A program made the position numbers and the translations under genes. Positions 17,874 through 47,164 of a stretch of 64,000 nucleotides of DNA are shown here, piece after piece. The stretch's first letter is position 1. The number at the start of each line of letters is the position of its first letter. The stretch is from positions 1,567,485 through 1,631,484 of the forward strand of contig OZ252015.1 in assembly GCA_965247525.1 (NCBI GenBank), in the 5' to 3' direction. This DNA is from Hyphomicrobiales bacterium (GTDB taxonomy: Bacteria; Pseudomonadota; Alphaproteobacteria; Rhizobiales; UBA4765). The notes under the pieces are model-generated. The model did no database searches. It had not been told where the DNA came from and worked only from the letters and a program-made list of their open reading frames with translations.

Positions 17874-17927
17874 TGAATACGGCGTCAGTTAGATTGATTG
17901 TTGTGCCCGGCTGGCCTAGCTCGATTT

Positions 17928-18728: not shown

Positions 18729-18765
18729 CGCCGCATTCCAAATAGATGGAGAGCTTCACCTCATT

Positions 18766-29032: not shown

Positions 29033-29491
29033 TGTGTCTCCGTTGAATGCGAACCGGGGTGCGAACCCGCGAACCTCAAGGGCGGGTGCGAACCCGGTTC
29101 GCGAACCTGCCGCTAGCAAAGGATCGCGCTGCCGCCGCCCGCATACGTTGAGGGCCGGGAAGAACCTAGAAGGGGCGGGGATCGCCGGTTTCGCGCCGCG
29201 TGCGCGCGTCGAATGCGCTTTGTCGTCGTGTTGTGCGTTTGAATGCGAGTGCGCTGGGGATCGTGGTGTCGATGCCTGCACCTCTCGCGATCATGCCAAC
29301 AAATATCGCCAAAACAGCTGAATTTGTCTCGCTCGAAGTTCGACGATCTGGCGTCGATATACGCCTGTTGAGCGCAGTCGAGAGCCGCGCCCGCGTCGTC
29401 GAATGCGCGTTCAAGTCGCCCCTACGCGCGCGCGAAGGATGAAAGCGCTTCCGCGCTGAAGGCGGGACTGATATGATCGAGCCCTTGAATT

Positions 29492-30247
29492 TTGGGGAGG
29501 TTGTCCGTGACGTCATGGCCAAATGGCGCTAAAGCTGCCATCAGTTTTACATACGATGATGGGCACGGGTCTTGTTTGGACTTTGCCATACCGCAACTGG
29601 AATCTCGTAAGTTTAAAGGAAGCTTTTTCATAACACCAACATTATATGGTGTAGGATCTCGTATTCACGAGTGGAGGGATGCTCATTCAAGAGGACACGA
29701 AATTGGTAATCACTCGTTTAGCCACCCGTGTATGCGTGGCGAATTACGTCTACCTCGCTATCTTGACTGGAGAGTTTTTGCCTCCGAGGAAACCGGACGG
29801 GCAGAGCAGTGGCTGAACGATAACATCTCGGTAGATAATTACAGGGCCTACGCTTATATTTGCGGTGAAACGAAACTCGGACCGGGGCCGGATGACGAAG
29901 CTGAATCAAGATATCTTGAGTTGGTTCAGCACACGTTTAGTGCTGCTCGCACCGGTGGCGGTGGGCCTGCTTCGGTCGAAGGCGTTTTGAGCGATAGACT
30001 TAGGATACCTGCTCAGGCTCTGACATGGGGAAATAATAGCGCAGACAAGTCGATCGAATACTGCCAAGCGGCCTTGCGAACAGGTGGCTGGGCCAGTTTA
30101 ATTTTTCACAAGATTGGCAATCCTTCGATCGATGAATCATACACTTCTTCGGATGTGCATCAAACGATTATTGATTTCGTCGCCTCCACTCCAGAAAATT
30201 TTTGGGTAGACACTTTTTCGAATGTTGTTAGATATATAGTAAAATAA
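29492..30247 (+). CDS. Polysaccharide deacetylase (NodB homology / CE4) family protein, AT-richer moron
   Basis: TTG start. ISFTYDDGHGS (the D-D motif) and HEIGNHSFSHP (the H-x4-H motif). It is on the opposite strand to the phage backbone and visibly AT-richer. Confidence 0.75.
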   Translation: MGRLSVTSWPNGAKAAISFTYDDGHGSCLDFAIPQLESRKFKGSFFITPTLYGVGSRIHEWRDAHSRGHEIGNHSFSHPCMRGELRLPRYLDWRVFASEETGRAEQWLNDNISVDNYRAYAYICGETKLGPGPDDEAESRYLELVQHTFSAARTGGGGPASVEGVLSDRLRIPAQALTWGNNSADKSIEYCQAALRTGGWASLIFHKIGNPSIDESYTSSDVHQTIIDFVASTPENFWVDTFSNVVRYIVK

Positions 30248-30252
30248 TAGTT

Positions 30253-30672
30253 TTAGACTTTAAGTCTTCTTTGGTCCAACACGGACTTCACATGCAGGCG
30301 ATGGCTGATCTTGATCAGCGCGGTCGCCCACCAGCGCCAGGCTGTCGCCCTGCTCACGCCGAGCCTTCGGCAGATCGGCTTCCACCGCATGCCCTCGGCG
30401 CGCAGCCACACAACGCGCGCCTCTTCGGGTTCGAGCCAGAACAGCCAGGCAAAGCATTCGTCCATGCGGTCGATGGATTGCGGCGTTGCCCAGACCTTCA
30501 TGGGCTGGCGCTCCATGGCCATGATCTCCCATGTCGTTCGCACGATAGCGGGCCAGACGTTGAAATAGCCCTGCGGCTTGTCGTCAGGCAGGCGGCGCAG
30601 GGTGCGTGCCGCTTCCTCGAAGCGGTCCTCGATCTCGTTCGGCGAAAGCGGTCCAGACAGGCGCTTGCTCAT
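30253..30672 (-). CDS. Phage regulatory protein with a C-terminal HTH (hypothetical)
   Basis: 139 aa with a C-terminal ICRRLGVSRATAWRWWATALIKI helix-turn-helix. Its start overlaps the RuvC stop. Confidence 0.45.
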   Translation of the reverse strand: MSKRLSGPLSPNEIEDRFEEAARTLRRLPDDKPQGYFNVWPAIVRTTWEIMAMERQPMKVWATPQSIDRMDECFAWLFWLEPEEARVVWLRAEGMRWKPICRRLGVSRATAWRWWATALIKISHRLHVKSVLDQRRLKV

Positions 30673-31202
30673 TATGCGCCTCCGATCTCATTGGCGATGG
30701 CCCAGGCGAGAAGCGCCAGAGCATCGGCCTCGTTGTCGTCCTTCGGTAGGAAACCTTGCGCCCGCACGGCGCGGATCACGTCCTCCTTCGGCGCATTGCC
30801 CTTGCCGGTGGCATGGCGCTTGATCGTGGCCACAGGCACGCCGAGATAGGGCGCGGCCTTGCGCTCGCACCATGCGGTAAGATGGGCGAGGAAGCCGCCA
30901 TAGACCTGCGCGGCAAGTGTTCCGGCGTGGGCGCGGACTTCCTCGAACACGACGGCGTCGAACGGGCCAGCATCGCGGTTGAGATCGGCGAGAAATTTCT
31001 CGAAGCGCAGGAACGCCATGCCAGCGCCTTCGAAGCGGCCAGGACGGAATTCGGTCACGCCCGAGGCAATCCGGCCCGAGCGCGGCAGCACGGCCCATCC
31101 GGTTCTGGTTCCAAGATCAAGCGCGAGGATCGTTCGCGACGGCGGCGGCGTCACGGCGGGCGCCGGCGGGATGGAAGGGTTTTTTACGGCGAGGGCAAGC
31201 AT
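30672..31202 (-). CDS. RuvC-like Holliday junction resolvase
   Basis: ATG 31202 with an AGGAGG RBS. ILALDLGTRTGWAV, AVVFEEV and KDDNEADALALLAWA carry the acidic catalytic residues in RuvC order. The listed ORF's long N-terminal extension is rejected. Confidence 0.75.
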   Translation of the reverse strand: MLALAVKNPSIPPAPAVTPPPSRTILALDLGTRTGWAVLPRSGRIASGVTEFRPGRFEGAGMAFLRFEKFLADLNRDAGPFDAVVFEEVRAHAGTLAAQVYGGFLAHLTAWCERKAAPYLGVPVATIKRHATGKGNAPKEDVIRAVRAQGFLPKDDNEADALALLAWAIANEIGGA

Positions 31203-32138: not shown

Positions 32139-34367
32139 TCATTCGAACTCCTCCGCAGGTTCATGGTTTCGGCGCTGGTCGGAGCGCATATCGCGCTCGT
32201 CCAAAGGGACGATCCGCAGGCCGTAGGTTTTGGTTTTGGCGTCGAAGAGCGTCCGTTCGATCGCACCGCCGCCCATCAGCCGGGCCAGCACATCCGCGAC
32301 GGTTTCGGCGGCGACGCGCAGCGCCTTTCCGACGATCCCCGGCGCATAGCGATCCTTCGCCCGGGGTTGTTCGGAGAGCGGCGAGCCTCCGTTCCAGGCG
32401 GTTCGGATCGCTTCGAACAGCGCGCTTTCGATTTCGGTAGAGCGGTCCTGTTGTGGGGCGCGCTCATTCGGATCGCCGGGCACCAGTGCGCCGACTTCCT
32501 CGCCATTGGCGATGATGATCGACACGCGCTTGAACCAGCGCGCCGAACCGGACGCGAGCGACAGGTTCGCCTTCGCATCATCGAGACGCACCCACAGGCG
32601 GCGCTCATCCGCATCGAGGCCAAACTTGTCGGCGTCGCTCTGCGACATGGCGAAGAGCGTGCGCATGATGCGAGCGACACCGCCGAGGGACGACGCGCCA
32701 CGCGAGGCCGACAGCGAGCCCGTCCAGGCATCTGGCGACGCCGACGGCGGCTTGCCGGTGTGGTGGACGATGACGACCGCGCAATCGCCGCGCCGGGCCA
32801 CTTCGCGCCACATGGCGGCGACGGCCTTGATCTGGGCGTTGTTGTTTTCATCGACCTCGTGGGTCTCGACGAAGGGATCGACGATAAGGAGGCCGATGCC
32901 TTCGGCCTGCACGCGCTCGATGATGGCTTCGATATCCGGCAGGCGCACCACCGCGCCGTCCTTCGTCGCCTTGGCGATGACGAGCGGGCGCTCCGAGCCG
33001 GAGTTGAGACCGAGCTTGCCGCGCAGATCAGCGGGCGCGACGTTCCATTGCTGCATGATCGCAGCCAGGCGACGACGCAGTTCATTGCGGTCGTCCTCGT
33101 TGTTCCAGACCCATGCCTTGATTGTCTCGTGAACGGTTTCGCCCACGATCTCGCCACGACCGGTGACGCCGGCGACCGCCAGCGCAATGCCGAGCGTGGA
33201 CTTGCCCGCACCGGGCGGCGCCACGAGCACGGTCAGATGGCCGCGGATCGCAAACGAGCCGACCAGCCAGCGGCGGCGCGGGATCATGGCGGCGCTTGCG
33301 CCGTCCTCCCATTCGATCGTGAGCGGAGGCGGCGGAAGCTTGTCCTCGATCGTCAGGACCGGGTTCGGCAGGTTCCACTTGCGCCGCGCGCCCGTGATCA
33401 TCGAGTTGAGTTGAAGGCACGTCTGATCGACCGTGTAACTTCGCCCGTCCGGCCCGTTGCCGATGGTCAAAGCGGGCGCGAATGCCAGGATCTCGGCGTT
33501 CGACAATCCGCGCGCCACCCAGTTGCCGACGAGCCGAACGGCGTTCTGGTGCCAGTGGTCGTTGCGCTGGATCGCGGCCAGCGTCGCCTCGACCGACAGA
33601 CTGCCAATAGGCAGTTCGAGCGGCCTCGGCGGCGAAGGCGCCATTGAGGGCGCTGACGGCTCCGAAGCTGCCGGAGCAGTCTGCAGGAGCGGCGCGGGCG
33701 CGGCGAAGGCTTGCGCGAGCGCCGACGCCCAATAGGCCGGCGGGCGATCATCTTCGGGGATATGGACTTCGGTAGCTTCGACAACGCGGCCCGGCTTTAG
33801 CGGCCAGGCAATCGATCCGCCGAGTCGCAGCACGCGGCCGGGGTTCGAGACGGTGCTGTCGCCGCCGAGCGCGAGGCCGATGCTGGAGCAAAGCGTCTTG
33901 ATTGCCGCGCCGTCCCGCTCGGCGTCCACAAGCCGCCACCAGAATTGCGCGCGCATGTGGGGATGGCGACCGGTGACAACGGTCATGGTCGCCGGAACAC
34001 CTGCCGCCTTCGCCGCTTTGATGGCCGCTTCGACGCAATCATCATCGATATCGGCCCAGGCGAAGGGCGCGGAATGGAAATCGGAATCAGCCGCGCGCTT
34101 CGCCAGCGCGGTGCCCGGTTTGCGGAGCGCGGCGCCGACATAGACGTTGCATCGCTCGGTGCGGTTCAGTTCAGCGGCACGCTCGACCAGTTCTTCGAGC
34201 TGATCGGTGCCGAACATCTGCGCGTTGCGAAGCGAGCCGGTCGCCGGATCGGTCCACGCCAGTTCGACGAGCCCATCGAGCGCACCGTCGAAGCCGCCGC
34301 CGAACACCAGTTCGACATGGCGGAGCATCGCAATGGGATCGGGCTGAATGGTTGAGGCCTCGCTCAT
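32139..34367 (-). CDS. Bifunctional primase-polymerase / RepA-like (AAA_25) helicase
   Basis: 742 aa with a prim-pol-like N-terminus. Walker A is LVAPPGAGKSTLGIALAV, and Walker B-like LLIVDPFVETH follows. The start overlaps the C5-MTase stop (ATGA). Confidence 0.8.
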   Translation of the reverse strand: MSEASTIQPDPIAMLRHVELVFGGGFDGALDGLVELAWTDPATGSLRNAQMFGTDQLEELVERAAELNRTERCNVYVGAALRKPGTALAKRAADSDFHSAPFAWADIDDDCVEAAIKAAKAAGVPATMTVVTGRHPHMRAQFWWRLVDAERDGAAIKTLCSSIGLALGGDSTVSNPGRVLRLGGSIAWPLKPGRVVEATEVHIPEDDRPPAYWASALAQAFAAPAPLLQTAPAASEPSAPSMAPSPPRPLELPIGSLSVEATLAAIQRNDHWHQNAVRLVGNWVARGLSNAEILAFAPALTIGNGPDGRSYTVDQTCLQLNSMITGARRKWNLPNPVLTIEDKLPPPPLTIEWEDGASAAMIPRRRWLVGSFAIRGHLTVLVAPPGAGKSTLGIALAVAGVTGRGEIVGETVHETIKAWVWNNEDDRNELRRRLAAIMQQWNVAPADLRGKLGLNSGSERPLVIAKATKDGAVVRLPDIEAIIERVQAEGIGLLIVDPFVETHEVDENNNAQIKAVAAMWREVARRGDCAVVIVHHTGKPPSASPDAWTGSLSASRGASSLGGVARIMRTLFAMSQSDADKFGLDADERRLWVRLDDAKANLSLASGSARWFKRVSIIIANGEEVGALVPGDPNERAPQQDRSTEIESALFEAIRTAWNGGSPLSEQPRAKDRYAPGIVGKALRVAAETVADVLARLMGGGAIERTLFDAKTKTYGLRIVPLDERDMRSDQRRNHEPAEEFE

Positions 34368-35656
34368 GGGCGGGCCTCGGAGGTGAGGATGGCACTAAGG
34401 ATTTGCGCGGCGACTTGCGGAACGATCGCGTTGCCGAGCGCCCTTAGTCGAGCCACCCGTTCGGATATCCCATGAGCCAGCAAACCCAAGCCGGGTTCAG
34501 TGCGCCGGAGTTTTCCGTCGGCGCATTCGACCCAGACGGCATGTCCCCACGGATCGCTGTCTGCGCCGCTTGCGCAGGCAGTGGTTGACCGCCCGCCCCA
34601 AACGCCTGGTTCGGCCCACCCTTTGCTCCGTCCGTCGCGCGGGGCGTTGACCAGTTCGCTTTGGCCTGCACGTTCAGCGCCTGGCTGTTCCGGCAGAACT
34701 GGCTCGGCGCTCCCAGGTTCGCGGAATCGTTCTGTGTCGGCGTTGACCACGGAGCCACCGCCGAGCGCCGCGCAAGTTGATCGAGCCCCATCTCGTCTTT
34801 GCGCTCGCCGCTGCGGCTGCGAAAGCTGTCCGTCCCCGGCGTCGGCCAGTTCGCCGGTCCCGCCCGATACATCTCCGTCCGGTTCATCCCCGACGACCGC
34901 TCGCCCGAGCAAACCCGGGGCGTCGGCCAGGGCGCCGACAGCGCGAGCGTTTTCAGCGCCGGACCTCCCTGCCGTCCGGGCGGCGGTTGCGCTCCGGTGC
35001 TTTCGTTCGCCCTCGGCGTCGGCCACGGCGATACGGCCATCGCCACCTCGTCCGGCAGGTTCGCCCCGCCATGTTTCCCGCCAAACCTCCGCCACCGCTT
35101 CGGATCGCCCCGGCCCTGCGCATCGTGCGCCTGTGGCGTCGTCCAGCCCTTTGGCGACGATCCAGACCCGCATGCGGTCATGGGGCGCGCCGACGGCGCA
35201 AGCCGGAATCCAAAACGGCCGGCCGGCGTAGCCCAGGGCTTCCAGATCAAAGAGCGTTCGATCGAGCCCCAGATCGCGATGACCATCAACGTTTTCGAAC
35301 AGGCACCAAGCGGGTCTTTCTTCGAGAGCCCCGAGGAGGCGAGCGCATTCCGGCCAGAGGTAGCGATCATCCGACATTCCGCGCCGGACGCCTGCGACCG
35401 AGAACGGCTGGCACGGGTAGCCGCCGGTCCAGAGCGGGCGGTCGTCGGGCCATCCTGCGAGGCGGACGGCAAGGCCGAAGCCGCCGATCCCGGCGAAGAG
35501 ATGGACTTGGGCGTATCCCCGAAGATCGGCAGCTTGAACTGTTCGGATGTCACGGTCGTCAACGTCCCCTGGCGGCAACGATCCGTCGGCGATCCGGCGC
35601 TTCAGAACGGCGACGGCGAACGGATCGATCTCGTTGTAGTAGGCGCGCAGAGGCAT
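34364..35656 (-). CDS. DNA (cytosine-5)-methyltransferase with an apparent internal frame switch (possibly a pseudogene)
   Basis: The frame of ATG 35656 carries motif I (LFAGIGGFG), motif IV (YPCQPFS), motif VI (FENV), APHDRMRVWIVA and the C-terminal motif X (LGNAIVPQV). The typical TRD/motif IX sequences (WPTP repeats, ATDGAKGGPNQ, WLMGYPNGW) are in the overlapping ORF 34444..35562. Confidence 0.7.
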   Translation of the reverse strand: MPLRAYYNEIDPFAVAVLKRRIADGSLPPGDVDDRDIRTVQAADLRGYAQVHLFAGIGGFGLAVRLAGWPDDRPLWTGGYPCQPFSVAGVRRGMSDDRYLWPECARLLGALEERPAWCLFENVDGHRDLGLDRTLFDLEALGYAGRPFWIPACAVGAPHDRMRVWIVAKGLDDATGARCAGPGRSEAVAEVWRETWRGEPAGRGGDGRIAVADAEGERKHRSATAARTAGRSGAENARAVGALADAPGLLGRAVVGDEPDGDVSGGTGELADAGDGQLSQPQRRAQRRDGARSTCAALGGGSVVNADTERFREPGSAEPVLPEQPGAERAGQSELVNAPRDGRSKGWAEPGVWGGRSTTACASGADSDPWGHAVWVECADGKLRRTEPGLGLLAHGISERVARLRALGNAIVPQVAAQILSAILTSEARP

Positions 35657-35738
35657 GGCGTGATCGCCCACGTGTTGAAGGGATTGGTGGATGGCAGAGC
35701 GATTGCCCGCGCCGGTTCTCGGCGCGGGCGGTGCGCGT

Positions 35739-36374
35739 TCAGAAGTCGGTCTCGTAGACGGGTTGTGGCGCAGGCTTCGCGGCGGGCGGCGGCACATGGC
35801 CAGCGGGCGCGGGCTTCGACGCTGCGGCGACGTTGCCTTTCCAGACCTCGCTCTCTTCGACCGCCGAGGCGTCCGGGAATTCCGCCGGGCGATCGACCCA
35901 CTTCGTCAGTTCGAGCTTCGGCCGGTAGTTGGTGCCGTATTTGTCCTTCATTGCGTCAGCGCCGGTACAGGCGATCACCGGCACCTTGCCGCGGTTCTCC
36001 GTGCGCCCGGCCTGTTCCTCGAACACCGCATAGACATCGCGGATCGCATTCGAGACGTGGATCGAGGCGGAGGCCATTTCGACGGCGCCGCCGAAGAACT
36101 TCGGCGAGAAGGCCATCACGACGAAGCCACGCTTGAAGCCCTCGCCGGGAGTGGGCGCGACCTTATCCAGCGCAGGATCGATCAGCCGTTCCGGCGCCTG
36201 GCCTTCCTGAAAGCGCAGCCAGCCGGTGCGGATATTGGCGAGATCGAGCAGGAAGGTGGGACGGGCGATTTCCAGATCGCCGCCGCCCTCCGCGCGGATA
36301 AACCACTTGTCCGATTTGGCGTTGTATTTGACGTAAGGGCGGATGATGCCGGAAGCGCCGATATTGAGTGCCAT
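35739..36374 (-). CDS. Hypothetical phage protein, possibly ssDNA-binding/annealing (gp2.5-like?), with an acidic-aromatic C-terminal tip
   Basis: 211 aa with a C-terminal Pro/Ala linker ending in VYETDF. It lies next to the nuclease gene. The functional call is positional only. Confidence 0.4.
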   Translation of the reverse strand: MALNIGASGIIRPYVKYNAKSDKWFIRAEGGGDLEIARPTFLLDLANIRTGWLRFQEGQAPERLIDPALDKVAPTPGEGFKRGFVVMAFSPKFFGGAVEMASASIHVSNAIRDVYAVFEEQAGRTENRGKVPVIACTGADAMKDKYGTNYRPKLELTKWVDRPAEFPDASAVEESEVWKGNVAAASKPAPAGHVPPPAAKPAPQPVYETDF

Positions 36375-37201: not shown

Positions 37202-37470
37202 CGCACGCCCCCACGGATCAGGATCTCGGCGCCGCGTTCGATCAGATCGGACGGGGTTTCGAGGAATTCGACATCCTCGTCGCGGAAGGCCACGCCGAGC
37301 TTGAGTTCGACATCGCCGACGAAATCCAGCCGGGCGATCGGATCGATCTGCCACAGGCGATCTTCAGCGGAAGGGTGTTCACCGAAGCGCTCATAGAAGG
37401 CGGCGCGGACGGCTTTGGCGGCGAGCGCGCGGGCTTCAAGCCGCTCGGCAATCATCAGGGGCGCGATCAT
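37198..37470 (-). CDS. Hypothetical small phage protein
   Basis: ATG 37470 overlaps the upstream stop (ATGA). 90 aa. Confidence 0.4.
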   Translation of the reverse strand: MIAPLMIAERLEARALAAKAVRAAFYERFGEHPSAEDRLWQIDPIARLDFVGDVELKLGVAFRDEDVEFLETPSDLIERGAEILIRGGVR

Positions 37471-37724
37471 CGGGCGGACCCCGTGCGCTTCGAGACCACC
37501 GGCCCGCGTTCCTGGGAGATCATCCATTCGCGGAAGGCATCGGCGCGATAGAAGACGCGGCGGCCGATCCGGACGCAGGGCGGGCCGATCCGGCGGGTCT
37601 GCCAGCGTTGCAAGGTCGCGGTCGAGATTCCCAGCGCTTCGGCGACCTCGCGCCGCCCCATCCAGCCTTGCATCAGTTCGGCAGATGCAGCTCCGTTTCG
37701 TTGCGCGTTAACTTGATCGTCCAT
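37467..37724 (-). CDS. HTH DNA-binding protein (excisionase/AlpA-MerR-like or Cro-like early regulator)
   Basis: ATG 37724. WMGRREVAEALGISTATLQRWQTRRIGPPCVRIGRRVFYRADAFREWM. It is divergent from the ImmA-XRE pair. Confidence 0.65.
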   Translation of the reverse strand: MDDQVNAQRNGAASAELMQGWMGRREVAEALGISTATLQRWQTRRIGPPCVRIGRRVFYRADAFREWMISQERGPVVSKRTGSAR

Positions 37725-37871
37725 GCCCGTTTCCTTGTGTCCTTGCGGTTCCGATGACCGCAAAGGGACCACGGCGAGCCGGCGTCAGGCAGGGTTGAAA
37801 CGGGCGCAAACGGGGCAGAAACAACAGAGCGAGGGCACAAAGACGGGCCGAATACGGGCGGAAACACGGGC
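37724..37871. repeat. Six imperfect direct repeats (minus-strand GCCCGTnT(T/C)) in the immunity intergenic region
   Basis: Copies at about 37724-37733, 37797-37806, 37807-37816, 37839-37848, 37850-37859 and 37861-37871. Confidence 0.5.
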
Positions 37872-38046: not shown

Positions 38047-38793
38047 ATGGTTCTGGCCATCGCGTATCCAAGCACGGCTGCGGGCGATCCCCATCGCTTG
38101 AGCGCCCAGAAGATCGCGAGTATCGCCAGCGATATCCGCAGCCGCCTGTTCGGGATTCAACCAAGGCCGGTCGATGTGGCGGCGCTGATCGCAAAGACGG
38201 CGCGCCTTGCGGTCAACGGCAAGCCGATCACCCTGTCCTGGGGCCTCGATCGACCGATCCACGACGAGAACGGCCACGAGGCGCTCGGCGTTTGCGAGAA
38301 CGATCCCGAGCTGCCCGACACTGTGATGATCAGTGTCAACGCCAGCCTGCTGGCTCATCAGCCGGAGGTGATCCGTTCAACCGCCGCGCACGAGTTTGCG
38401 CACGCCATCTTCGACATGCCGGCGGCGATGGGCGGCAATATCCGGCGGACATTCCGAACATCGGTTGCGCCCGCCATTGCCAAGCCCGGCGCGCCGATCG
38501 ATTGGGTTGAATGGCGGGCCGACGAGTTCATGGGCGCGTTTCTGGTTCCGGCCGACAAGCTGGCGCGCGTGCTGCCAAAGCACGCAAGCGCCCTTGATCT
38601 GCCGTTCCGCTGGCGCGCCGCGCCCGATGGCCGCTCCGTTCCCTTCGTCGATCTTGATCCGAGCGAGGGCACGCTCGGCCTGCTGGTCGATGACCTCGCC
38701 GAAGCCTTCGGCGTGACCGCCGCCTTCATGTCGGTGCGGTTGGCGAAGGGCGGTTTCATCGGGCGGAGCTTTGAAACCAGGAGTGCGATCTGA
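38047..38793 (+). CDS. ImmA/IrrE family metallopeptidase
   Basis: The HEXXH motif is in STAAHEFAHAIFD, with a downstream EWRADEFMGAFLVP. GGAGG RBS. Confidence 0.8.
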   Translation: MVLAIAYPSTAAGDPHRLSAQKIASIASDIRSRLFGIQPRPVDVAALIAKTARLAVNGKPITLSWGLDRPIHDENGHEALGVCENDPELPDTVMISVNASLLAHQPEVIRSTAAHEFAHAIFDMPAAMGGNIRRTFRTSVAPAIAKPGAPIDWVEWRADEFMGAFLVPADKLARVLPKHASALDLPFRWRAAPDGRSVPFVDLDPSEGTLGLLVDDLAEAFGVTAAFMSVRLAKGGFIGRSFETRSAI

Positions 38794-39083
38794 TGGCCTT
38801 CGGTCAAACCGTCCGCTTTCACCGCAACGACAAGGGCTTCGGCCTGAACGAGTTCGCCGAGCGTCTCGGCGTCTCGCCCGCGTATTGGAGCCGCGTCGAG
38901 CGCGAACAGGAAAACCCGCCGCGCGACGATCTCGTCGAGCGCGTCGCCGCCATCCTTGAAGTGAAGCTCGACGATCTTTTCTGCGAAGCAGGACGCCTGC
39001 CGCCCGATCTGCGCGGCGACATCAAAGCCGTGGTCACGCTCTATCGACGCAGCCGCGACACAAGGAATTCCACCAGCAAATGA
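38793..39083 (+). CDS. XRE family HTH transcriptional regulator (candidate prophage repressor)
   Basis: GLNEFAERLGVSPAYWSRVEREQENP. The start overlaps the ImmA stop (TGATG). Confidence 0.8.
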   Translation: MAFGQTVRFHRNDKGFGLNEFAERLGVSPAYWSRVEREQENPPRDDLVERVAAILEVKLDDLFCEAGRLPPDLRGDIKAVVTLYRRSRDTRNSTSK

Positions 39084-39113: not shown

Positions 39114-39749
39114 ATGCCAGCGCCGCCCCGTTCCTTCCTGACCGTTACCGACACCGCGATCCGCTGGCAGGTTCCCGCCCTCGACATCGCGGGCTGGGCG
39201 ATCGATGGCGAGATCGCGCTTTCCGCCGTGCTGCCAACCGTTGAGACCGCCGATAAGCAGATCGCCTCCGGGATCGTGGAGATCGACGGCGCGGACGTGG
39301 TCGCCTTGTTCCGGCGTGACGGCGCATCGCGCAAGCCGGCGCTGGTGCGGCGCTTCCGCCGTTCGAAGAAGACGGAGTGGGAGTGGATTGCGCGCCCGGT
39401 CGATGGCGTCGCCGTCACCTCCGCCGACGTGATCATCCTGCGCAAGGAGTTCGAGCGTTGCGAGCGCGCCTGGGGATTGTTCGACGCGGGTGCGGCCGAG
39501 AGCGGCCCGAAGGCATCAACACAAGCCAAGCGCGCCGCCGGGCCGGGCGCGCCGCCCAAGCACGATTGGGACGCCTTCGCAGGCGCCATCGCCCGGCGCG
39601 TGCATGATCACGGCATGCCGGTCAGCCAGGGCGAGCTGGTGCGCGATATGATGGACTGGTTCGCGGGCCGGGAGGATTTCCCGCCGCCTGATGAGCGGAC
39701 GGTGCGACGGAAGGTGTCAGCGATTTGGAGGGAACTGGTCTCGCATTAG
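39114..39749 (+). CDS. Hypothetical protein
   Basis: 211 aa with phage-backbone-like GC. No motif recognised. Confidence 0.45.
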   Translation: MPAPPRSFLTVTDTAIRWQVPALDIAGWAIDGEIALSAVLPTVETADKQIASGIVEIDGADVVALFRRDGASRKPALVRRFRRSKKTEWEWIARPVDGVAVTSADVIILRKEFERCERAWGLFDAGAAESGPKASTQAKRAAGPGAPPKHDWDAFAGAIARRVHDHGMPVSQGELVRDMMDWFAGREDFPPPDERTVRRKVSAIWRELVSH

Positions 39750-39858: not shown

Positions 39859-40347
39859 ATGGCCCGCAAGGTGTTCTTCAGCTTTCACTATGCCCGTGAC
39901 GTTCGTCGAATCGTCCAGGTTCGGAATTCGTGGGTCGTTCGGGCCAAGGGCGATGCACCTCCCTTCTATGACGCGGCCGAGTTCGAGGAGGCGAAGAAGC
40001 GCGCAGGCGGCATCGAGAAGTGGATTGAGGAACAGCTAAAAGGCACCTCCGTGACGGTCGTCCTGTTCGGGGCGGAGACCTATGATCGCGAGTGGGTTCG
40101 GCACGAGATCAAGCGCAGCTACGAACTAAAAAAGGGCATGCTCGCGATCGACATTCACAAAGTGAAAGACCCGCAGGTCGGAGCCGATGTGCAAGGCAGG
40201 AACCCGCTGGACTACTGGCAAGTTGAACAAAACGGCCAAAAGGTGCCGTTCAGCAGGCTCTACAGGACGTACGATTGGGTCGACAACGACGGCTATAACA
40301 ATATCTCGACTTGGATCGAGGCAGCCGCCAAGGCTGCTGGCTACTGA
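39859..40347 (+). CDS. TIR-like domain protein (DUF1863 / ThsB-type)
   Basis: GGAGGAG RBS. N-terminal KVFFSFHYARDVRRIVQVRNSW and REWVRHEIKRS with the conserved Glu. 162 aa, single domain. Confidence 0.7.
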   Translation: MARKVFFSFHYARDVRRIVQVRNSWVVRAKGDAPPFYDAAEFEEAKKRAGGIEKWIEEQLKGTSVTVVLFGAETYDREWVRHEIKRSYELKKGMLAIDIHKVKDPQVGADVQGRNPLDYWQVEQNGQKVPFSRLYRTYDWVDNDGYNNISTWIEAAAKAAGY

Positions 40348-40354
40348 GGCTCCT

Positions 40355-41515
40355 ATGAGCTTATACGAACTCGCGATTTTAGGGCATGTCACGCCGGATG
40401 ACAGGCAGAGACTCACCGAAACCCTGTGCGGCGTCATCGACGATTTCGGCTTGGTCCTCGGTATCGAAGTGCTGGTGCATGATGGCGCTACCGTCGCGGG
40501 TCGAGACAAGCGTGCTGCGTTTGCCGCCGTGTACTTCGGCGGGGACATCACAGCTGACCAAGAGACGGCAAAGGAGCTGCTGCGGGCCAGCGCGCCCGTT
40601 ATTCCGACTGTCGCGACCGACGGCGATTTTGGGCACCAAATTCCGGAGTTTCTCCAGTTCTCGAATGGATTGAAGCGGCGCGCCGACGACCCCAACATGA
40701 CAGAGCTCGCTGCGGCGTTGCTCGAGTGCGTTGGCCTACTGCGCCGTCAAAGGCGTGTTTTCGTCAGCTATCGGCGGATCGAGTCCCGCGCCGCCGCTCT
40801 TCAACTTCATGATCTTCTCTCTGCTCGCGGCTTCGATGTGTTCTTGGACACGCACGATATACGCCCCGGCGACCCTTTCCAGGACGTACTCTGGCACCGT
40901 CTGGTCGACTCCGACGTAATGGTGATGCTAGACACGCCGGGATACTTCGATAGCCGATGGACCCGACAAGAGATCGGTCGAGCCAGGGCGAAAGATATCC
41001 AGGTGCTGCGGGTGATTTGGCCCGAGCATACGCCCAACAAACTCACCGATATGGCTGAGACGGTCTATCTGGACGCCGGTGAGCTGGAGGGTCCTGACGG
41101 CCCGATCGCGGACGTTGTCGCGGAAACGATTGTGCTTGAGGTCGAGCGGCTGCGGAGCCGAAGCATTGCTGCGCGCTACATGTCGATTACTGGGAAGCTA
41201 AGGGCTGACGTGGAGAAGATCGGCGCTTCTATAGAGGGGGTTGGTGCTCATAGAGCAATCGCGGTGCGCCTTTTAGATGATCGCCGGGTCTGGGCATACC
41301 CGGTTGTTGGCGTTCCAACAGCAGAGATACTGAACGATATTGCAGACAAGGCGAACAGGGCGGATCAGCACGAGGTGCCGGTACTAGTTTATGATCACGT
41401 CGGTATACGCGATGCCTGGAGCGCCCACTTGAAATGGCTTGACGACCAGATTCGGGCAGTGCGCGCGATCAAAGTATCGGAGGCGGGTTGGGCACTTGCC
41501 GCGTGGGAGGCATGA
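40355..41515 (+). CDS. Multidomain TIR domain protein (unknown N- and C-terminal domains)
   Basis: ATG 40355 follows a GAGG RBS. The central TIR core is RVFVSYRRIESRAAALQLHDLLSARGFDVFLDTHDIRPGDPF...VMVMLDTPGYFDSRWTRQEIGRA. Confidence 0.7.
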   Translation: MSLYELAILGHVTPDDRQRLTETLCGVIDDFGLVLGIEVLVHDGATVAGRDKRAAFAAVYFGGDITADQETAKELLRASAPVIPTVATDGDFGHQIPEFLQFSNGLKRRADDPNMTELAAALLECVGLLRRQRRVFVSYRRIESRAAALQLHDLLSARGFDVFLDTHDIRPGDPFQDVLWHRLVDSDVMVMLDTPGYFDSRWTRQEIGRARAKDIQVLRVIWPEHTPNKLTDMAETVYLDAGELEGPDGPIADVVAETIVLEVERLRSRSIAARYMSITGKLRADVEKIGASIEGVGAHRAIAVRLLDDRRVWAYPVVGVPTAEILNDIADKANRADQHEVPVLVYDHVGIRDAWSAHLKWLDDQIRAVRAIKVSEAGWALAAWEA

Positions 41516-41517
41516 AC

Positions 41518-42174
41518 ATGGCGGACGCCATCTTTCTCTCAGCGGGTGTTCCAGACCCCAGGCGCGGCCCGGAATACGCGGTCACGGCAGATAGCGTGGC
41601 GATCAGCGCTGCTGTCTCTGCGCTAGTGCACGTCACGCTCGGCCGCCGCCTTCTGGTGTGGGGTGGCCAGCCTGCTATAACACCGATGATCTGGGTGGTC
41701 GCCCAAGACATTGGTGTCGACTATGGTCGTTGGGTGCGGCTGTATCAATCGCGCCACTTCAAGGACGATTTTCCAGAGGATAACGAGCGTTTCAAGAACG
41801 TCACTTTCACCGACGATGTCGAGCGGGATCGAGAGAAGAGCCTACTACTGATGCGCGAGAGGATGTTCTCTGAGCATGCTTTTAAGGCTGCGGTCTTCAT
41901 TGGTGGGATGGGTGGCATTGTCGATGAATTCGAGCTGTTCCGTCGCTTGCAGCCCAAAGCTGCGGTCGTGCCGGTCGTCTCGACAGGCGGAGCGACGTTG
42001 GAAGTGGCGTCCCGCGCGGGCGCTCTTCCGGCTGAACTTACCGATGATCTGGATTACGTAGCGTTGTTCCACCGTCAGCTGGGCATATCCGTGAAGGAAG
42101 AGCGTTTCAGGAGTCCTGAAGATCAGCCGACCGAGATGGACGCGCGCTTTTGGCGTCCGGCGCCAAAAACCTAA
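41518..42174 (+). CDS. Stand-alone SLOG/LOG-fold (ThsA sensor-like) Rossmannoid protein
   Basis: GGAGG lies 7 nt upstream of ATG 41518. An alternative ATG at 41512 overlaps the upstream stop. Motifs are AIFLSAGVP, LLVWGGQPAITP, FIGGMGGIVDEFELF (GGxGGxxxE) and AAVVPVVSTGGA. No TM segment or other domain is visible. Confidence 0.55.
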   Translation: MADAIFLSAGVPDPRRGPEYAVTADSVAISAAVSALVHVTLGRRLLVWGGQPAITPMIWVVAQDIGVDYGRWVRLYQSRHFKDDFPEDNERFKNVTFTDDVERDREKSLLLMRERMFSEHAFKAAVFIGGMGGIVDEFELFRRLQPKAAVVPVVSTGGATLEVASRAGALPAELTDDLDYVALFHRQLGISVKEERFRSPEDQPTEMDARFWRPAPKT

Positions 42175-42247: not shown

Positions 42248-43447
42248 CTACATGGTCACTGCCTGAACCAGCCTCGGCTTCGCCCGCAGCATATCGCCGA
42301 CCTGTTCAAGCCCCGCGCGAAGGGGATCGTCGAGCAGGTGGGCGTAGCGCTGCGTGGTCTGAACCTGCGTGTGGCCGAGCAGCTTGCCGATCATCGGCAG
42401 CGTCATGCCACCCGAAACCAGCAGCGACGCGAACGTGTGGCGCAGATCATGGATGCGTACGGCGGGCAGTTCGGCCTTTGCCCGGACATCTTCCCAGAAC
42501 CGCTTGATGTCCTGAAGCGGCTTGCCTTCGGCATCGCCCGGAAACACCCACTCGCAATCTTCGGGCACGCGCAGCCGGATCGTGCGCAGCAACGCGGCGG
42601 CGGAAGCGCTGATCGGCGCACGATGCAGACGGCGCTGCTTCGTAGTGGCGGCAGGCTTGATCCAGACGCCGGCGTCGAGATCGAATTGATCCCAGCGAGC
42701 GTTCAGGACTTCGCCGCGCCGCGCGCCGGTTAGTAGGATCAGCCGCACCGCATCGGCGGCGCGCCGGTTCGGATGCGCATCGAGCGCGGTAGACAGCCGC
42801 CCGATTTCATCGGGTGAGAGATAGCGGTCCCGAGGCGCCTCGGCGTTCCGGGCAAACCCGGCGGCGGGGTTGTCGGCGCGAATGCGCCAGCGGATCGCAA
42901 GGTTGAACATCTTGCGCAGGATTTCGCCGAGCCGGTTCGCGCGCACTGGCGTCGGCTTGCGGCCTCGCTTTCCCGGCGTGCCACCGGCGATCTGGCGCAG
43001 CAGCCGATCAACATCATCGGGCTGGATCTCTGCCGCCTTGCGCGGTCCCCAGGCAGGCTCGACCAGCTTGCGCAGCATCGACGCCTGATCGTCGCGGTTG
43101 CGCTTCGCAAGCTTGGCGGCGTGCTCTTCGAGATAGCGGTCGATCAGTTGTCGCACATTGGGCGACTCCCGGGCTTCGTCCCGTTCGGCCATAGGATCGC
43201 GGCCCTGATCGATTTCGCGCTTGAGGCGCTTGGCCTCTTCCCGGGCGGCTGTGACCGACCAATCCGGCCATGCGCCGATGGTGAGGCGGCGTTCCCGCGC
43301 CTCGATCCGATAGGTCAGGATGAAGGCGCGCGTGCCGCCACTGGTGATGCGCACGCCGAAGCCGACCACCTCCTCGTCATAGACGATGATGTTCTTCTGC
43401 TTCGGCTGAAGCCCTTTCACGCTGCGTTCGGTGAGATGCGCCTTCAT
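42248..43447 (-). CDS. int: Tyrosine recombinase / phage integrase (P4-type, DUF4102 N-terminal arm-binding domain)
   Basis: N-terminal LTERSVKGLQPKQKNIIVYDEEVVGFGVRIT. C-terminal HDLRHTFASLLV...LLGHTQVQTTQRYAHL. Confidence 0.9.
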   Translation of the reverse strand: MKAHLTERSVKGLQPKQKNIIVYDEEVVGFGVRITSGGTRAFILTYRIEARERRLTIGAWPDWSVTAAREEAKRLKREIDQGRDPMAERDEARESPNVRQLIDRYLEEHAAKLAKRNRDDQASMLRKLVEPAWGPRKAAEIQPDDVDRLLRQIAGGTPGKRGRKPTPVRANRLGEILRKMFNLAIRWRIRADNPAAGFARNAEAPRDRYLSPDEIGRLSTALDAHPNRRAADAVRLILLTGARRGEVLNARWDQFDLDAGVWIKPAATTKQRRLHRAPISASAAALLRTIRLRVPEDCEWVFPGDAEGKPLQDIKRFWEDVRAKAELPAVRIHDLRHTFASLLVSGGMTLPMIGKLLGHTQVQTTQRYAHLLDDPLRAGLEQVGDMLRAKPRLVQAVTM

Positions 43448-43545: not shown

Positions 43546-43592
43546 GGGCCGAAAGCCAACGATGCGGAGATAGTGGGGCGGGCTTTCGGCCC
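43546..43592. repeat. 12-bp perfect inverted repeat GGGCCGAAAGCC / GGCTTTCGGCCC with a 23-nt spacer, upstream of int
   Basis: Read directly. A second inverted repeat, AACGATG (43559-43565) / CATCGTT (43599-43605), is interleaved with it. Confidence 0.6.
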
Positions 43593-43824: not shown

Positions 43825-43901
<77 letters not shown>

Positions 43902-44027: not shown

Positions 44028-44594
44028 ATGTCACAGCCAATCCGTTTTTTTCTAAAAGATGCGACCGCAAAATCTCACTTAAAGCTCGATACGCTGGTCT
44101 CGCAGCTCGACCTCTCAACAAAAACAGGACTGTTGGCATTTCTCAAAATGCACGCGCTTGCGCTGTCAGCCATCGAGCCTTTTTTGTCCGCCAATGGTGT
44201 ATCGAAACTTTTGCCCGACTGGAATGAGCGCACACGGTTAGGGGCGGCACAAAATGATTTGCGTGCACTGGGTGAATGCGGCGAGCTATCACAGCCTCCT
44301 GTTTTTAAAAGTGAGGCAACGATCCCGGATCTTCTCGGCATGCTTTATACGATTGAGGGATCACGGCTTGGCGCACGTGTGCTGCACCAGCAGGCTGGCG
44401 AGCATTGCATTGCAGGCGGTAGCCAGTTTTTACAACATGGGCTTGGGAAGAAGTTTTGGCCGACATTTCTAGGTGTGCTTGAAGGGCATGACATGAAAGC
44501 AAATGAGGCTGAGAGTGCCGCGCATTCTGCCAACCGTATTTTTAATTTTTACGTACAAACATTTGAAATGTCTTATCTGGAGCCCGTATCATAG
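44028..44594 (+). CDS. bphO: Heme oxygenase (biliverdin-producing, BphO-like)
   Basis: N-terminal LKDATAKSHLKLD and YTIEGSRLG are heme-oxygenase-type motifs. Its stop overlaps the phytochrome start. Confidence 0.7.
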   Translation: MSQPIRFFLKDATAKSHLKLDTLVSQLDLSTKTGLLAFLKMHALALSAIEPFLSANGVSKLLPDWNERTRLGAAQNDLRALGECGELSQPPVFKSEATIPDLLGMLYTIEGSRLGARVLHQQAGEHCIAGGSQFLQHGLGKKFWPTFLGVLEGHDMKANEAESAAHSANRIFNFYVQTFEMSYLEPVS

Positions 44595-47164
44595 TGGTTG
44601 CTGCACAACGAGAAACGCTTTCGCCGCAGGATCCTGTTGATCTGACAAATTGCGAACGCGAACCTATCCATCTTTTGGGTAAGATCCAGCCTGTCGGGTT
44701 TCTGGTTGCGGTGTCATCGGACTGGATTGTTCAGTTTGTGTCGCAAAACATCGCGGAGTTTGTCGGCAGCAGCGCCGATGCCATTTTGGGCCTGCCTTTG
44801 TCGCAACTGTTTTGCGAGGCTTCGCTTGTGAGGTTTCGCGCCTCCCTCCGCCTTCTTAACAATAACAATGATCTTGAGCGCATTTTCAATGTGCAGGTGA
44901 GCGCGGATGGGCCGGAATTCGACGTCACACTGACGCTCAACCAAGGCCGCGTTCTTATTGAATGTGAGCCATCAACGCCAGCTGATGTGGCAACGCGCGA
45001 TGCCTCGGTGCGCGTTATCATCAGCCGTTTAAATGCGGCACCCGATGTCAACACGCTATGCCATACGGCAGCGCGCATGGTCAAAATGATGACCGGGTTT
45101 GACCGCGTCATGATTTACAGATTTCTTCACGACGATTCAGGTGAAGTCGTTGCGGAAGCAAAGCAAGACACGTTGGAGAGTTTTCAGGACCTGCGCTATC
45201 CGGCGAGCGACATTCCAAAGCAGGCGCGAGAGCTTTACAAAAAAAACCTCATTCGTATTATTGCCGACGTCAATGGTCAAACGGTTCCTATCGTTCCGCA
45301 AAAAGACCCGCACGGGCAGATACTTGATCTTTCAACAAGCGTTCTGCGCTCGGTTTCACCCATCCATATCGAATATTTAAAAAACATGGGCGTTGGCGCA
45401 TCCATGTCAGTGTCAATTCTTCTCAATGGCGAGTTGTGGGGGCTTGTTGCCTGCCACCATATGACGGCGATCAAGCTTAATGTGCATCAGCGGGTCATGG
45501 CCGAACTTGTCGGGCAAATGCTGTCGCTGGCACTGGAAAGCCGCGAGCGGCGCGAGGATCTTGAAGATACTGAAAAAGCGCAAAAGTTTCATGAGCATAT
45601 TATGCGGACGGTGGCATCGTCACAAAACCCGCTGACATCATTGACGCAAGGCATTGAAGAAATGCGGGTGCTGTTAAAAGCTGATGGTGCCGCTCTTTAC
45701 ATTGATGGCGACCTGCAGCTTTTTGAAAAAACACCATCGCCGGATGAGTTTAAAGATCTTGTTCGGTTTCTGAACCGCACGGCTTCTGCAACTGTCTTTC
45801 ACACCTACCAGATTGAAAATATTTATGAACCTGGGCGGGATTTTACCTCGCGTGCCGCCGGGCTGCTGGCCATTCCAGTGTCGCGTCGGCCGCGTGATTA
45901 TCTTGTCTTCTTTCGCGAGGAGATTGCCAAATCCGTCAAATGGGCTGGAAATCCTGAAAAAGCGGTAACTTACGGGCCCAATGGCGCGCGCCTTACGCCT
46001 CGTAAAAGTTTCGAGACGTGGCAGCAAACGGTACAAGGCCAATCAGAGCCGTGGTCGCGCAATGAAATCAGGCTTGCCGAATCTTTGCGCCATACTTTGC
46101 TTGAAGTTGTTTTGAGGCAGACAGACTTTCTCGAAAAAGAAAGAAAAGCCGCGCAGGAAAAGCAAGAGCTTCTCATTGCTGAGTTGAACCACCGCGTTCG
46201 CAATATTTTGTCGCTTATTCGCGGATTGATCAGCCAGAGCCAAAATGAGCAAAAATCAACCGAAGATTTTGTCGACACGCTTGATGATCGTATTCGCGCA
46301 CTCGCGCGCGCGCATGACCAGATTACAAAACAAAACTGGTCGCCAGGCTCCGTGATCGAGTTGATTAATATGGAAACAGAAGCTTACCTTGGCGATAAGG
46401 CCGACAAGGTGCGAATAACGGGTGAAGACTTTTTGTTGCAGCCTGAGGCATTTTCAACATTGGCCTTGGTGATCCATGAGCTAACGACAAACTCGGCCAA
46501 ATATGGTGCCTTGTCGGATTTTTCCGGCATTGTTGAAATTTCTCTTTCGGGCGACGGCGACAATAATTTTATTTTGAATTGGAAAGAGCGAAACGGCCCT
46601 CCGGTAAAGCCGCCAACGCGCCGCGGCTTTGGCAGCACAATTATCGAGCGCTCGATTCCACATGGATTAAAAGGCGAAAGCGACATTCACTACGCGCTGG
46701 GTGGTGTTGAAGCTAAACTGCTTATTCCAGCAAAGCAGGTGGCAGAGCGTCAAAAGCCGATGGTAAAGGTTGCGAGCATAAAGCCAAAAGAAGTTTCAGC
46801 CAGTTTACGTCTCAGCGGCGAAGTGCTTCTTGTTGAAGACAATCTCATAATTGCTCTTGATACGGAAGCCATGGTTGAAACACTTGGGGCTGCAAAAGTT
46901 TATACGGCAAGCAATATCAAGGAAGCGAAGGATTTTATTGAACAGAAAAATTTAAGTTTTGCGTTTCTTGATATTAACCTTGGCGACACAACAAGTTTCT
47001 CAATTGCCGAAACGCTAATCAGCAAAAACGTGCCTTTTATCTTTACGTCAGGCTACGGAGATGACACGTCCATTCCTGAAAACCTGCGACATGTTCCGCG
47101 CGTCTCTAAACCTTTCGACATACACACGCTTCGCACTGGCATGAGCGCCACCAAAGCGCTTTAA
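44594..47164 (+). CDS. bphP: Bacteriophytochrome: PAS-GAF-PHY photosensory core + HWE histidine kinase + receiver
   Basis: GTG start. The biliverdin Cys is in LTNCEREPIHLLGKIQP. GAF motifs YRFLHDDSGEVVAE and SPIHIEYLKNMGV. The HWE kinase shows LNHRVRNILSLI and NWKERNGPPV...RGFGS. The C-terminal REC shows VLLVEDNLII. Confidence 0.9.
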   Translation: MVAAQRETLSPQDPVDLTNCEREPIHLLGKIQPVGFLVAVSSDWIVQFVSQNIAEFVGSSADAILGLPLSQLFCEASLVRFRASLRLLNNNNDLERIFNVQVSADGPEFDVTLTLNQGRVLIECEPSTPADVATRDASVRVIISRLNAAPDVNTLCHTAARMVKMMTGFDRVMIYRFLHDDSGEVVAEAKQDTLESFQDLRYPASDIPKQARELYKKNLIRIIADVNGQTVPIVPQKDPHGQILDLSTSVLRSVSPIHIEYLKNMGVGASMSVSILLNGELWGLVACHHMTAIKLNVHQRVMAELVGQMLSLALESRERREDLEDTEKAQKFHEHIMRTVASSQNPLTSLTQGIEEMRVLLKADGAALYIDGDLQLFEKTPSPDEFKDLVRFLNRTASATVFHTYQIENIYEPGRDFTSRAAGLLAIPVSRRPRDYLVFFREEIAKSVKWAGNPEKAVTYGPNGARLTPRKSFETWQQTVQGQSEPWSRNEIRLAESLRHTLLEVVLRQTDFLEKERKAAQEKQELLIAELNHRVRNILSLIRGLISQSQNEQKSTEDFVDTLDDRIRALARAHDQITKQNWSPGSVIELINMETEAYLGDKADKVRITGEDFLLQPEAFSTLALVIHELTTNSAKYGALSDFSGIVEISLSGDGDNNFILNWKERNGPPVKPPTRRGFGSTIIERSIPHGLKGESDIHYALGGVEAKLLIPAKQVAERQKPMVKVASIKPKEVSASLRLSGEVLLVEDNLIIALDTEAMVETLGAAKVYTASNIKEAKDFIEQKNLSFAFLDINLGDTTSFSIAETLISKNVPFIFTSGYGDDTSIPENLRHVPRVSKPFDIHTLRTGMSATKAL

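Follow-up and report, generated by a model that had tools for sequence, protein, structure and literature searches.

Does a compact three-gene cassette in a prophage of a Hyphomicrobiales bacterium, made up of two TIR proteins and a free-standing SLOG sensor protein, represent a new kind of Thoeris defence system or a variant of one already known? The cassette lies at 39859-42174 of a 64,000-nucleotide stretch (the window) of contig OZ252015.1 (assembly GCA_965247525.1, forward-strand positions 1,567,485 to 1,631,484). An initial annotation made from the sequence alone had called it 'Thoeris-like' and had regarded the free sensor as new, on the ground that described Thoeris systems fuse the effector to the sensor. 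The first of these statements stands on the family matches described below; the second does not, a SLOG-only type III Thoeris having already been published. The cassette is very probably a reduced three-gene form of this type, consisting of a ThcB2-like protein, ThcB4 and ThcA, and its architecture is therefore already catalogued, not new. Its parts are as follows.

39859-40347, + strand: gene 1, a ThcB2-like TIR protein of ThsB type, 162 amino acids
40346-40349, + strand: GAGG, resembling a ribosome-binding site; it overlaps the stop codon of gene 1 and lies 5 nucleotides upstream of the ATG of gene 2
40355-41515, + strand: gene 2, ThcB4, 386 amino acids from the ATG picked in the initial annotation
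41512-41515, + strand: ATGA, the stop/start overlap of thcB4 and thcA, read directly in the sequence
41512-42174, + strand: gene 3, ThcA, 220 amino acids (218 from the ATG at 41518)

The assignment is carried by two NCBIfam equivalog models, each matched end to end and far above its cut-off, together with identities to the TIR proteins of the validated type III system and with the published description of the type. Gene 2 matches NF058526.1 (Thoeris_type3_ThcB4) with an E-value of 1.2e-147 and 491.7 bits (cut-off 220), its residues 4-379 aligning to positions 1-375 of the 375 in the model, and gene 3 matches NF058525.1 (Thoeris_type3_ThcA) over positions 1-184 of 184 (6.8e-78, 260.6 bits, cut-off 110). 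According to two citing papers (10.64898/2025.12.03.692087 and 10.64898/2026.01.22.701046, both citing van den Berg et al. 2024), type III Thoeris comprises multiple TIR proteins and a SLOG-only protein; these papers and the NCBIfam models supply the definition used here. Englert et al. 2026 state that the ThsA of type III holds a SLOG domain only and name the TIR genes thcB. The validated example is the five-gene L0872 system of Pseudomonas aeruginosa (van den Berg et al. 2024, Cell Host Microbe 32:1427), which encodes ThcA and ThcB1-4; its TIR-domain sequences were taken from the supplement of Yirmiya et al., and phage protection by the P. aeruginosa system, as well as its inhibition by TadIII-1, is reported in the literature. 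Published work describes the type III signal, receptor logic and effector activity as uncharacterised, and a literature search on the names ThcA and ThcB returned no mechanistic study.

The features of the type that are present in the window are ThcA and ThcB4 above cut-off, thcB4 directly upstream of thcA, and more than one TIR protein (one ThsB_TIR and one TIR_2). The full ThcB1-4 set is absent, only the ThcB2-like protein and ThcB4 being encoded, with the integrase gene int directly after thcA. The trio thus matches a catalogued defence subtype, an outcome that the initial annotation had listed as counting against its claim. In PADLOC, which it had proposed as a check, ThsB models match both gene 1 and gene 2, gene 3 finds no match among those for ThsA, and the 2023 models supply no ThsA component for the locus.

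The more local claims of the initial annotation fared well. Open reading frame analysis confirms three co-directional, tightly packed genes; the 7-nucleotide gap between genes 1 and 2 with its GAGG can be read in the sequence, as can the ATGA at 41512-41515, an overlap that is taken to reflect translational coupling of thcB4 and thcA. The start of thcA is ambiguous between the ATG at 41512, which overlaps the thcB4 stop codon and gives 220 amino acids, and the ATG at 41518, which gives 218, as in most homologues. All motifs quoted for the three proteins (KVFFSFHYARDVRRIVQVRNSW, REWVRHEIKRS, RVFVSYRR..., AIFLSAGVP, FIGGMGGIVDEFELF and VVSTGGA) are present, and the cassette is indeed poorer in guanine and cytosine (GC) than the phage backbone, its GC fraction being 0.57-0.60 at 40000-42000 and that of the prophage around it 0.62-0.70. 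An identical cassette occurs on an independent Joint Genome Institute metagenome contig, where the separately called genes encode the same proteins of 162, 386 and 220 amino acids.

Gene 1 is, as first described, a ThsB-type TIR with the conserved glutamate. It matches Pfam ThsB_TIR (4.7e-24), the PADLOC ThsB model PDLC00431 over its full length (1e-63) and the PADLOC candidate PDC-M50B; none of the NCBIfam models (release 20) matches it. The closest solved structures found in the PDB search are the ThsB proteins 6LHY, 9B7D and 8WCF (E ~2.6e-28). Glu83, within REWVRHEIKRS, aligns with the glutamate of 'WVRYEI' in Bacillus cereus ThsB and is conserved in at least 90% of 47 relatives. By BLASTP, the gene 1 protein shares 45% identity with ThsB from the type I system of B. 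cereus MSX-D12; among the TIRs of P. aeruginosa L0872 its best match is TIR 2 (42% identity over 154 columns, E 1.5e-31), and identity to TIR 3 is 40%.

Gene 2 has 1836 homologues, nearly all 386 amino acids long, and a mean column identity of 81%. Its AlphaFold2 model (mean predicted local distance difference test score (pLDDT) 81, predicted template modelling score 0.78) comprises three domains:

40355-40738, + strand: N-terminal alpha/beta domain, residues 1-128, with alternating beta and alpha elements (pLDDT 82-95)
40751-41089, + strand: TIR domain, about residues 133-245, with Glu206 (Pfam TIR_2 at residues 135-241, 2e-17)
41096-41512, + strand: C-terminal domain, residues 248-386, in which a long helix precedes a beta-beta-beta-alpha-beta-alpha-beta-alpha unit (AlphaFold2)

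This agrees with the earlier description of a TIR core in the middle of the protein between flanks that could not be assigned, as neither flank has a Pfam or PDB sequence match above noise. The TIR domain shares 59% identity with L0872 TIR 4 (BLASTP, E 8.7e-41), matches the TIR domains of SARM1 and RPS4 in Foldseek (probability 1.00) and finds 7UXR, TIR-1 and SARM1 in profile searches of the PDB; Glu206 is invariant in 32 sequences. Beyond the full-length match to the PADLOC ThsB model PDLC00434 (1.8e-80), the next-best PADLOC matches are partial ones to SAVED-TIR models and to TIR effector models of CBASS, the anti-phage system that signals through cyclic oligonucleotides. There is thus some evidence that the ThcB4 TIR is of effector type, namely its TIR_2 family, the invariant Glu206 and these partial matches.

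The N-terminal domain, with a mean column identity of 71% among 14 homologues, has no Pfam match at E<=10, and its best PDB sequence match (E 0.33) is noise. The C-terminal domain is the best-conserved part of the protein (86%), and it too has no convincing match in Pfam or the PDB (best E 0.24 and 0.28). Fold searches with the whole chain returned mainly unspecific alpha/beta proteins of several domains (EngA and SIS domains; template modelling scores (TM) 0.15-0.28), with true TIR matches in the middle of the protein only, and sequence searches of the PDB detect no solved structure of full-length ThcB4 or of ThcA. A nuclease assignment for the C-terminal domain was considered but not made: the order alpha-beta-beta-beta-alpha-beta resembles that of PD-(D/E)xK enzymes, but no conserved D...(D/E)xK-like residues were seen in the right strands.

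Gene 3 was described at the outset as a SLOG/LOG-fold protein with no fused effector, and so it proves to be: it matches Pfam PF18180 ('SLOG cluster3') over positions 1-170 of 170 (2e-80) and leaves no room for an effector domain. Its AlphaFold2 model (pLDDT 84) is closest in the PDB to DprA (4LJK, probability 0.98, TM 0.48), to the LOG-like protein 1WEH and to the N-terminal domains of TRPM proteins. DprA, LOG-like proteins and the TRPM N-terminal domains are all members of the SLOG superfamily. The expectation that the SLOG domain of ThsA would be the top fold match was not borne out, ThsA being absent from the 50 fold matches listed; this and the folds that were found agree with a 2026 review that sets the type III SLOG apart from the STALD-type SLOGs found in types I and II. 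Invariant LOG-like glycine-rich motifs are present in ThcA (W50-G-G-x-P and G131-G-M-x-G-I-x-x-E139, the latter reading GGMGGIVDE in the window and resembling PGGxGTxxE), and SLOG cluster 3 is the only Pfam family reported, with no match to the LOG family at E<=1.

What defines the system becomes clearer from its relatives, which were surveyed in 80 genome loci from different species with the window genes as queries, accessory TIRs being counted up to 1.5 kilobases (kb) from the core. The ThcA family has 1624 matches in a 90%-clustered collection, or 934 clusters at 50% identity (E<=1e-3), and identity is 72-89% across the best 120 matches, which include Alphaproteobacteria and a myxobacterium. 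In 78 of the 80 loci, thcB4 is full length and its end meets the start of thcA. Because the two genes are adjacent and full length in so many unrelated loci, their pairing is far beyond chance. One exception is a contig edge; the other, an Arenicellales metagenome-assembled genome (L066, 6001-6618), has a ThcA homologue (63% identity) that lies away from any contig edge and upstream of which ThcB4 could not be detected, the sole such case in 80. The thcB4-thcA junction measures -13 to +6 nucleotides in all 78 loci, with a 4-nucleotide overlap in 41, and the identities of ThcB4 and ThcA to their window counterparts co-vary (r = 0.88, n = 76).

By contrast with this core, the small TIRs vary: there are 0-5 per locus, on either side and on either strand, and they belong to several families, including ThsB types and a TIR_2 type, the equivalent of TIR 1 in P. 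aeruginosa (45% identity). Counted as (upstream, downstream) over the 78 loci, the commonest layout is that of the window, (1,0), with 18 loci, followed by (0,0) with 17, (1,1) with 15 and (1,2) with 14. In the 52 loci where ThcB4 has 65% identity or more to that of the window, a gene 1 ortholog was found in 22, a paralogue of less than 50% identity in 21 and neither in 9. Judging from these comparisons, the small TIR has evidently been exchanged independently of the core, and a conserved core with variable small TIRs mirrors types I and II, in which ThsA is conserved and ThsB varies. Only ThcA and ThcB4 have NCBIfam matches in any tested locus, which is consistent with these two defining the system; given also the count of 0-5, the number of TIR genes looks like a variable, not a defining, feature of type III. 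The closest genomic relatives (L001, L002, L004 and L005) carry an additional ThcB1-like gene after thcA.

Other proteins occur beside the core in some of these loci. In Sphingopyxis and related genomes (L025, L026 and L029-L032, at about 3631-4797), a 386-amino-acid Tle1-like/DUF2235 hydrolase (PF09994, 5.7e-71) directly upstream of thcB4 replaces the small TIR, and in L038 and L023 a UDG-superfamily protein takes its place; either protein may serve the ThcB4-ThcA core as an alternative partner or effector. The Klebsiella variicola plasmid pKLVA-1 (NZ_AP024593.1; L081, 1914-7401) carries an operon of TIR, TIR, SLOG(cluster 2)-patatin, ThcB4, ThcA and TIR genes, in which the SLOG-patatin protein is annotated 'CBASS cGAMP-activated phospholipase'. 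This sensor-effector fusion could answer the same kind of signal as the adjoining ThcB4-ThcA. ThcA matches of ~49% identity are also found on Enterobacter, Citrobacter, Serratia and Klebsiella plasmids.

Natural fusions bear on the relationship between the two core proteins. Among the 149 best ThcA representatives at 50% clustering, 124 are stand-alone proteins of 150-280 amino acids, and three, P0326 (600 amino acids), P0352 (572) and P0294 (735), combine a ThcB4-like region and a ThcA-like SLOG in a single chain, in the order of the window genes. The ThcB4-like regions match gene 2 with E-values of 1e-26 to 8e-33 and the SLOG regions match gene 3 with 4e-31 to 9e-44. These Rosetta-stone fusions, the translational coupling and the co-variation of identities suggest that ThcB4 and ThcA probably act as one physical unit, a split TIR-SLOG receiver/effector, and the fusions lend support to the earlier proposal that the second TIR protein is the candidate effector. 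P0294 is extended at its N terminus by about 170 amino acids, and two other ThcA-like proteins bear unrelated extensions, P0268 of about 200 extra C-terminal residues and P0296 of about 200 extra N-terminal residues.

How, then, might the cassette work? We tentatively propose, with a little less than even confidence, that the small TIR makes a signal, ThcA binds it and a ThcA-ThcB4 unit executes the response. Gene 1, the predicted phage sensor and signal-producing TIR, would detect an infecting phage and use Glu83 to convert NAD+ to an ADP-ribose-derived signal, a role assigned to it because of its resemblance to B. cereus type I ThsB. The stand-alone SLOG protein ThcA, the predicted receptor, would bind this signal and work with ThcB4 as a split receiver/effector, the analogue of type I ThsA with its SIR2 and SLOG domains. 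Binding would switch on ThcB4, either through its TIR domain acting as an NADase (Glu206) or through its conserved C-terminal domain, and thereby block phage replication and shield the lysogen from superinfection. Casting the conserved ThcB4-ThcA pair as receiver and effector, and the variable TIRs as sensors and signal makers, follows the analogy with types I and II.

Several observations weigh against this proposal. In Englert et al. 2026, type III Thoeris is reported to show no abortive-infection phenotype, which a simple model of NAD+ depletion fits poorly, and the hypothesis of a NucS-like nuclease domain is attributed to the primary paper. No nuclease-like domain is detectable in the window proteins by Pfam or hhalign: there is no NucS among the Pfam matches to the ThcB4 terminal domains at E<=10, and hhalign with a NucS/EndoMS profile, built from a mycobacterial sequence and validated against PDB entries 5GKE and 2VLD, gave probabilities of 0.1% for ThcB4 and 0.4% for ThcA, the profiles being shallow. 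In 17 of the 78 loci, no accessory TIR was detected near the core with the queries used, some of these loci lying at contig ends, and in such core-only loci ThcB4 itself may make the signal. The window lacks the ThcB1- and ThcB3-like genes of the validated system, so function is not guaranteed. Finally, a scan of the + strand for promoters and terminators yielded nothing useful and found no promoter-like site upstream of gene 1, this being a weak test in a GC-rich host.

The main rival reverses the roles, with ThcB4 sensing a phage component through its N- and C-terminal domains and making the signal, ThcA relaying or gating it, and small TIRs or phospholipases serving as accessory effectors or amplifiers. 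The core-only loci speak for it, as does the Tle1-like hydrolase or SLOG-patatin beside the core in some loci, each potentially the true effector, and multidomain TIR proteins with recognition domains commonly act as sensors. Yet sensors of phage proteins usually diversify, whereas ThcB4 is conserved throughout and most of all in its C-terminal domain; it is the small TIRs that are variable and swappable, gene 1 is close to a known signal-producing ThsB, and the window holds no other effector gene. We therefore regard reversed roles as unlikely, though deserving serious attention. A more radical scheme, which we rate as a long shot, has type III depart altogether from a signal that activates a fused killer: ThcA, as a LOG-like enzyme or allosteric subunit, would together with the ThcB4 C-terminal domain constitute a new, non-abortive effector, and the three-gene cassette would be its minimal natural unit. 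It is rather improbable that ThcA is a LOG-like glycohydrolase which converts or destroys the TIR-made nucleotide, thereby producing the real messenger or resetting the system. Such an enzyme could account for the reported non-abortive phenotype, and ThcA both retains the invariant motifs given above and has no effector domain; but the protein matches SLOG cluster 3 and not the Pfam LOG family, similar motifs in the SLOG domains of ThsA serve only to bind ligand, and the fusion to ThcB4 fits a sensor-effector at least as well.

Could the cassette instead be a decayed or incomplete remnant of a five-gene system, non-functional for want of ThcB1 and ThcB3? The validated P. aeruginosa system carries four TIR genes, and the closest relatives have their ThcB1-like gene where the window has int. 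The three open reading frames are nevertheless intact and full length with conserved catalytic residues, a single TIR plus the core is the commonest layout, and the same cassette recurs unaltered on the independent metagenome contig, all of which makes decay very unlikely. The initial annotation had also offered the SLOG protein as a phage-encoded anti-Thoeris sponge for host signals, in keeping with its prophage location and its lack of an effector domain. This we consider scarcely credible. Gene 3 is an equivalog of a defence-system component and is tied to ThcB4 in bacterial loci, on chromosomes and plasmids alike (29 plasmids carry a ThcA homologue), sometimes within one chain. Phage collections tell the same story: tblastn found no ThcA homologue in 50,697 phage genomes, a pattern-based scan of IMG/VR, which reaches close relatives only, found none, no PHROG matches gene 3, and a viral fold library returned only generic SLOG/DprA-like folds at E>1e-3.

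The tentative model of a small signalling TIR and a ThcA-ThcB4 receiver also has to be seen in its genomic setting. The cassette is accessory cargo of a temperate, siphovirus-like prophage and sits between the regulatory region and int, as the initial annotation had placed it, with helix-turn-helix (HTH) and M78 peptidase genes upstream and the integrase downstream. The prophage and adjoining features are:

5539-9489: tail protein
11407-14754: tape measure protein
19472-21526: head/protease protein
21544-23079: portal protein
23308-25299: large terminase
27358-28296, - strand: DNA methyltransferase (PHROG 1.6e-130)
28289-29281, - strand: ParB-N-like protein (weak, under the Pfam cut-off)
32139-34367: primase/helicase
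34364-35797, - strand: DNA methyltransferase (PHROG 6.9e-63)
37467-37772, - strand: excisionase-like HTH protein
38047-38793, + strand: ImmA/IrrE-like peptidase (Peptidase_M78, 2.8e-4, weak)
38793-39083, + strand: XRE-type HTH protein (HTH repressor PHROGs, 7e-9)
39114-39749, + strand: phage protein (phrog_13283, 5.9e-45)
42248-43447, - strand: tyrosine integrase, directly downstream of the cassette (phrog_1, 2.9e-66; Pfam Arm-DNA-bind_3 and Phage_integrase on the identical metagenome contig)
43825-43901, + strand: tRNA-Met

Carriage of type III Thoeris by a prophage looks unusual, because no homologue was found in the phage genome collections searched. In the 80 related loci, none of the phage genes that neighbour the window cassette is shared, only distant integrases being present in 7. 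The methyltransferases and the ParB-N-like protein may help the prophage to evade host restriction.

A 15-base-pair exact direct repeat, GGGGCGGGCTTTCGG, occurs at 4429-4443 and 43575-43589, with a rough chance expectation of 0.03-0.1. One copy falls between int and the tRNA-Met gene, the second close to where the GC-rich block ends on the opposite side, which makes the repeat a candidate attL/attR core and the prophage about 39 kb long. The tRNA-Met gene faces the prophage with its 5' end, not its 3' end, an unusual geometry for integration at a tRNA gene; for this reason it may be a mere neighbour of int. Past about 44 kb, the GC fraction falls to 0.40-0.52 and the genes are those of the host, an unusually large gap from the 0.65 of the prophage. 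This host flank includes, at 44028-47164 on the + strand, a heme-oxygenase-like gene that overlaps by 1 nucleotide a bacteriophytochrome gene (PAS_2, GAF, PHY, HWE histidine kinase and receiver domains). A second defence cluster, at the other end of the prophage or shortly past it, is found at the left edge of the window (18-3221, + strand, GC 0.58-0.60): a type III restriction enzyme subunit, truncated where the window begins (PADLOC REase_III 3e-270, model positions 252-985 of 989), adjoins the PADLOC candidate defence gene PDC-S14 (3.4e-114, DUF4357). Two further low-GC patches within the prophage may hold additional accessory genes, 17900-19300 (0.53), with unassigned open reading frames adjoining a DUF6441 gene, and 29000-31000 (0.56-0.58), with a polysaccharide-deacetylase-like open reading frame at 29492-30247 (5.7e-10) and an unassigned one of 192 amino acids; PADLOC has no matches in either.

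The value of the locus lies less in classification, which it leaves unchanged while adding an example for specialists, than in the bearing of its core/accessory anatomy and of the fusions on the type III mechanism. That the pair is near-invariant, co-evolves and is fused in some relatives favours a split TIR-SLOG receiver/effector, and the natural three-gene form, in the commonest layout, is a simpler construct for mechanistic work than the five-gene P. aeruginosa operon. As prophage cargo beside int, it may also be an under-sampled case of a prophage that confers TIR-based immunity on its lysogen.

Comparison with known systems places the cassette as follows. Sponges of the Tad1/Tad2 type are phage-encoded and act alone, whereas ThcA is paired with ThcB4 and no homologue of it was found in the phage genomes searched. 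In type II Thoeris the effector has transmembrane helices and a Macro domain; no Macro domain is matched in the window genes (Pfam, PADLOC). With type I, represented by the SIR2-SLOG ThsA and ThsB of B. cereus MSX-D12, the window shares a small TIR of the same ThsB family with its catalytic glutamate kept, a SLOG-superfamily domain as presumed receptor, and the combination of variable TIR sensors with a conserved receiver; it differs in having no SIR2 domain in any gene (Pfam), a SLOG of Pfam 'cluster 3' and not of the ThsA/STALD type, and a receiver split over two proteins, with a second TIR as the candidate effector domain. TIR-SAVED and TIR-STING proteins (of CBASS and type III CRISPR) likewise couple a ligand sensor to a TIR_2-type NADase domain, as the partial PADLOC matches reflect. 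Unlike in those proteins, the window sensor is separately encoded and only occasionally fused in relatives, its signal is presumably NAD+-derived through a TIR and not cyclase-made, and ThcB4 has two extra unassigned domains. The predicted effectors 'SLOG-patatin' and 'SLOG + 4TM' (supplementary tables of Yirmiya et al. 2025) are also SLOG receivers found with TIR genes, the former sharing the Klebsiella operon with ThcB4-ThcA, but they are fused directly to an effector that attacks membranes or lipids, a kind of gene that the window lacks. From the validated type III system L0872, the window differs in having three genes instead of five, without a ThcB1- or ThcB3-like TIR, in its alphaproteobacterial-type lineage, in its position inside a prophage beside int, and in that the NucS-like domain hypothesised for type III was not detected in its proteins by hhalign with shallow profiles. 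It is nonetheless to L0872 that the cassette bears the closest overall likeness, with a stand-alone SLOG protein ThcA, a three-domain ThcB4 and at least one small TIR of ThsB type in common.

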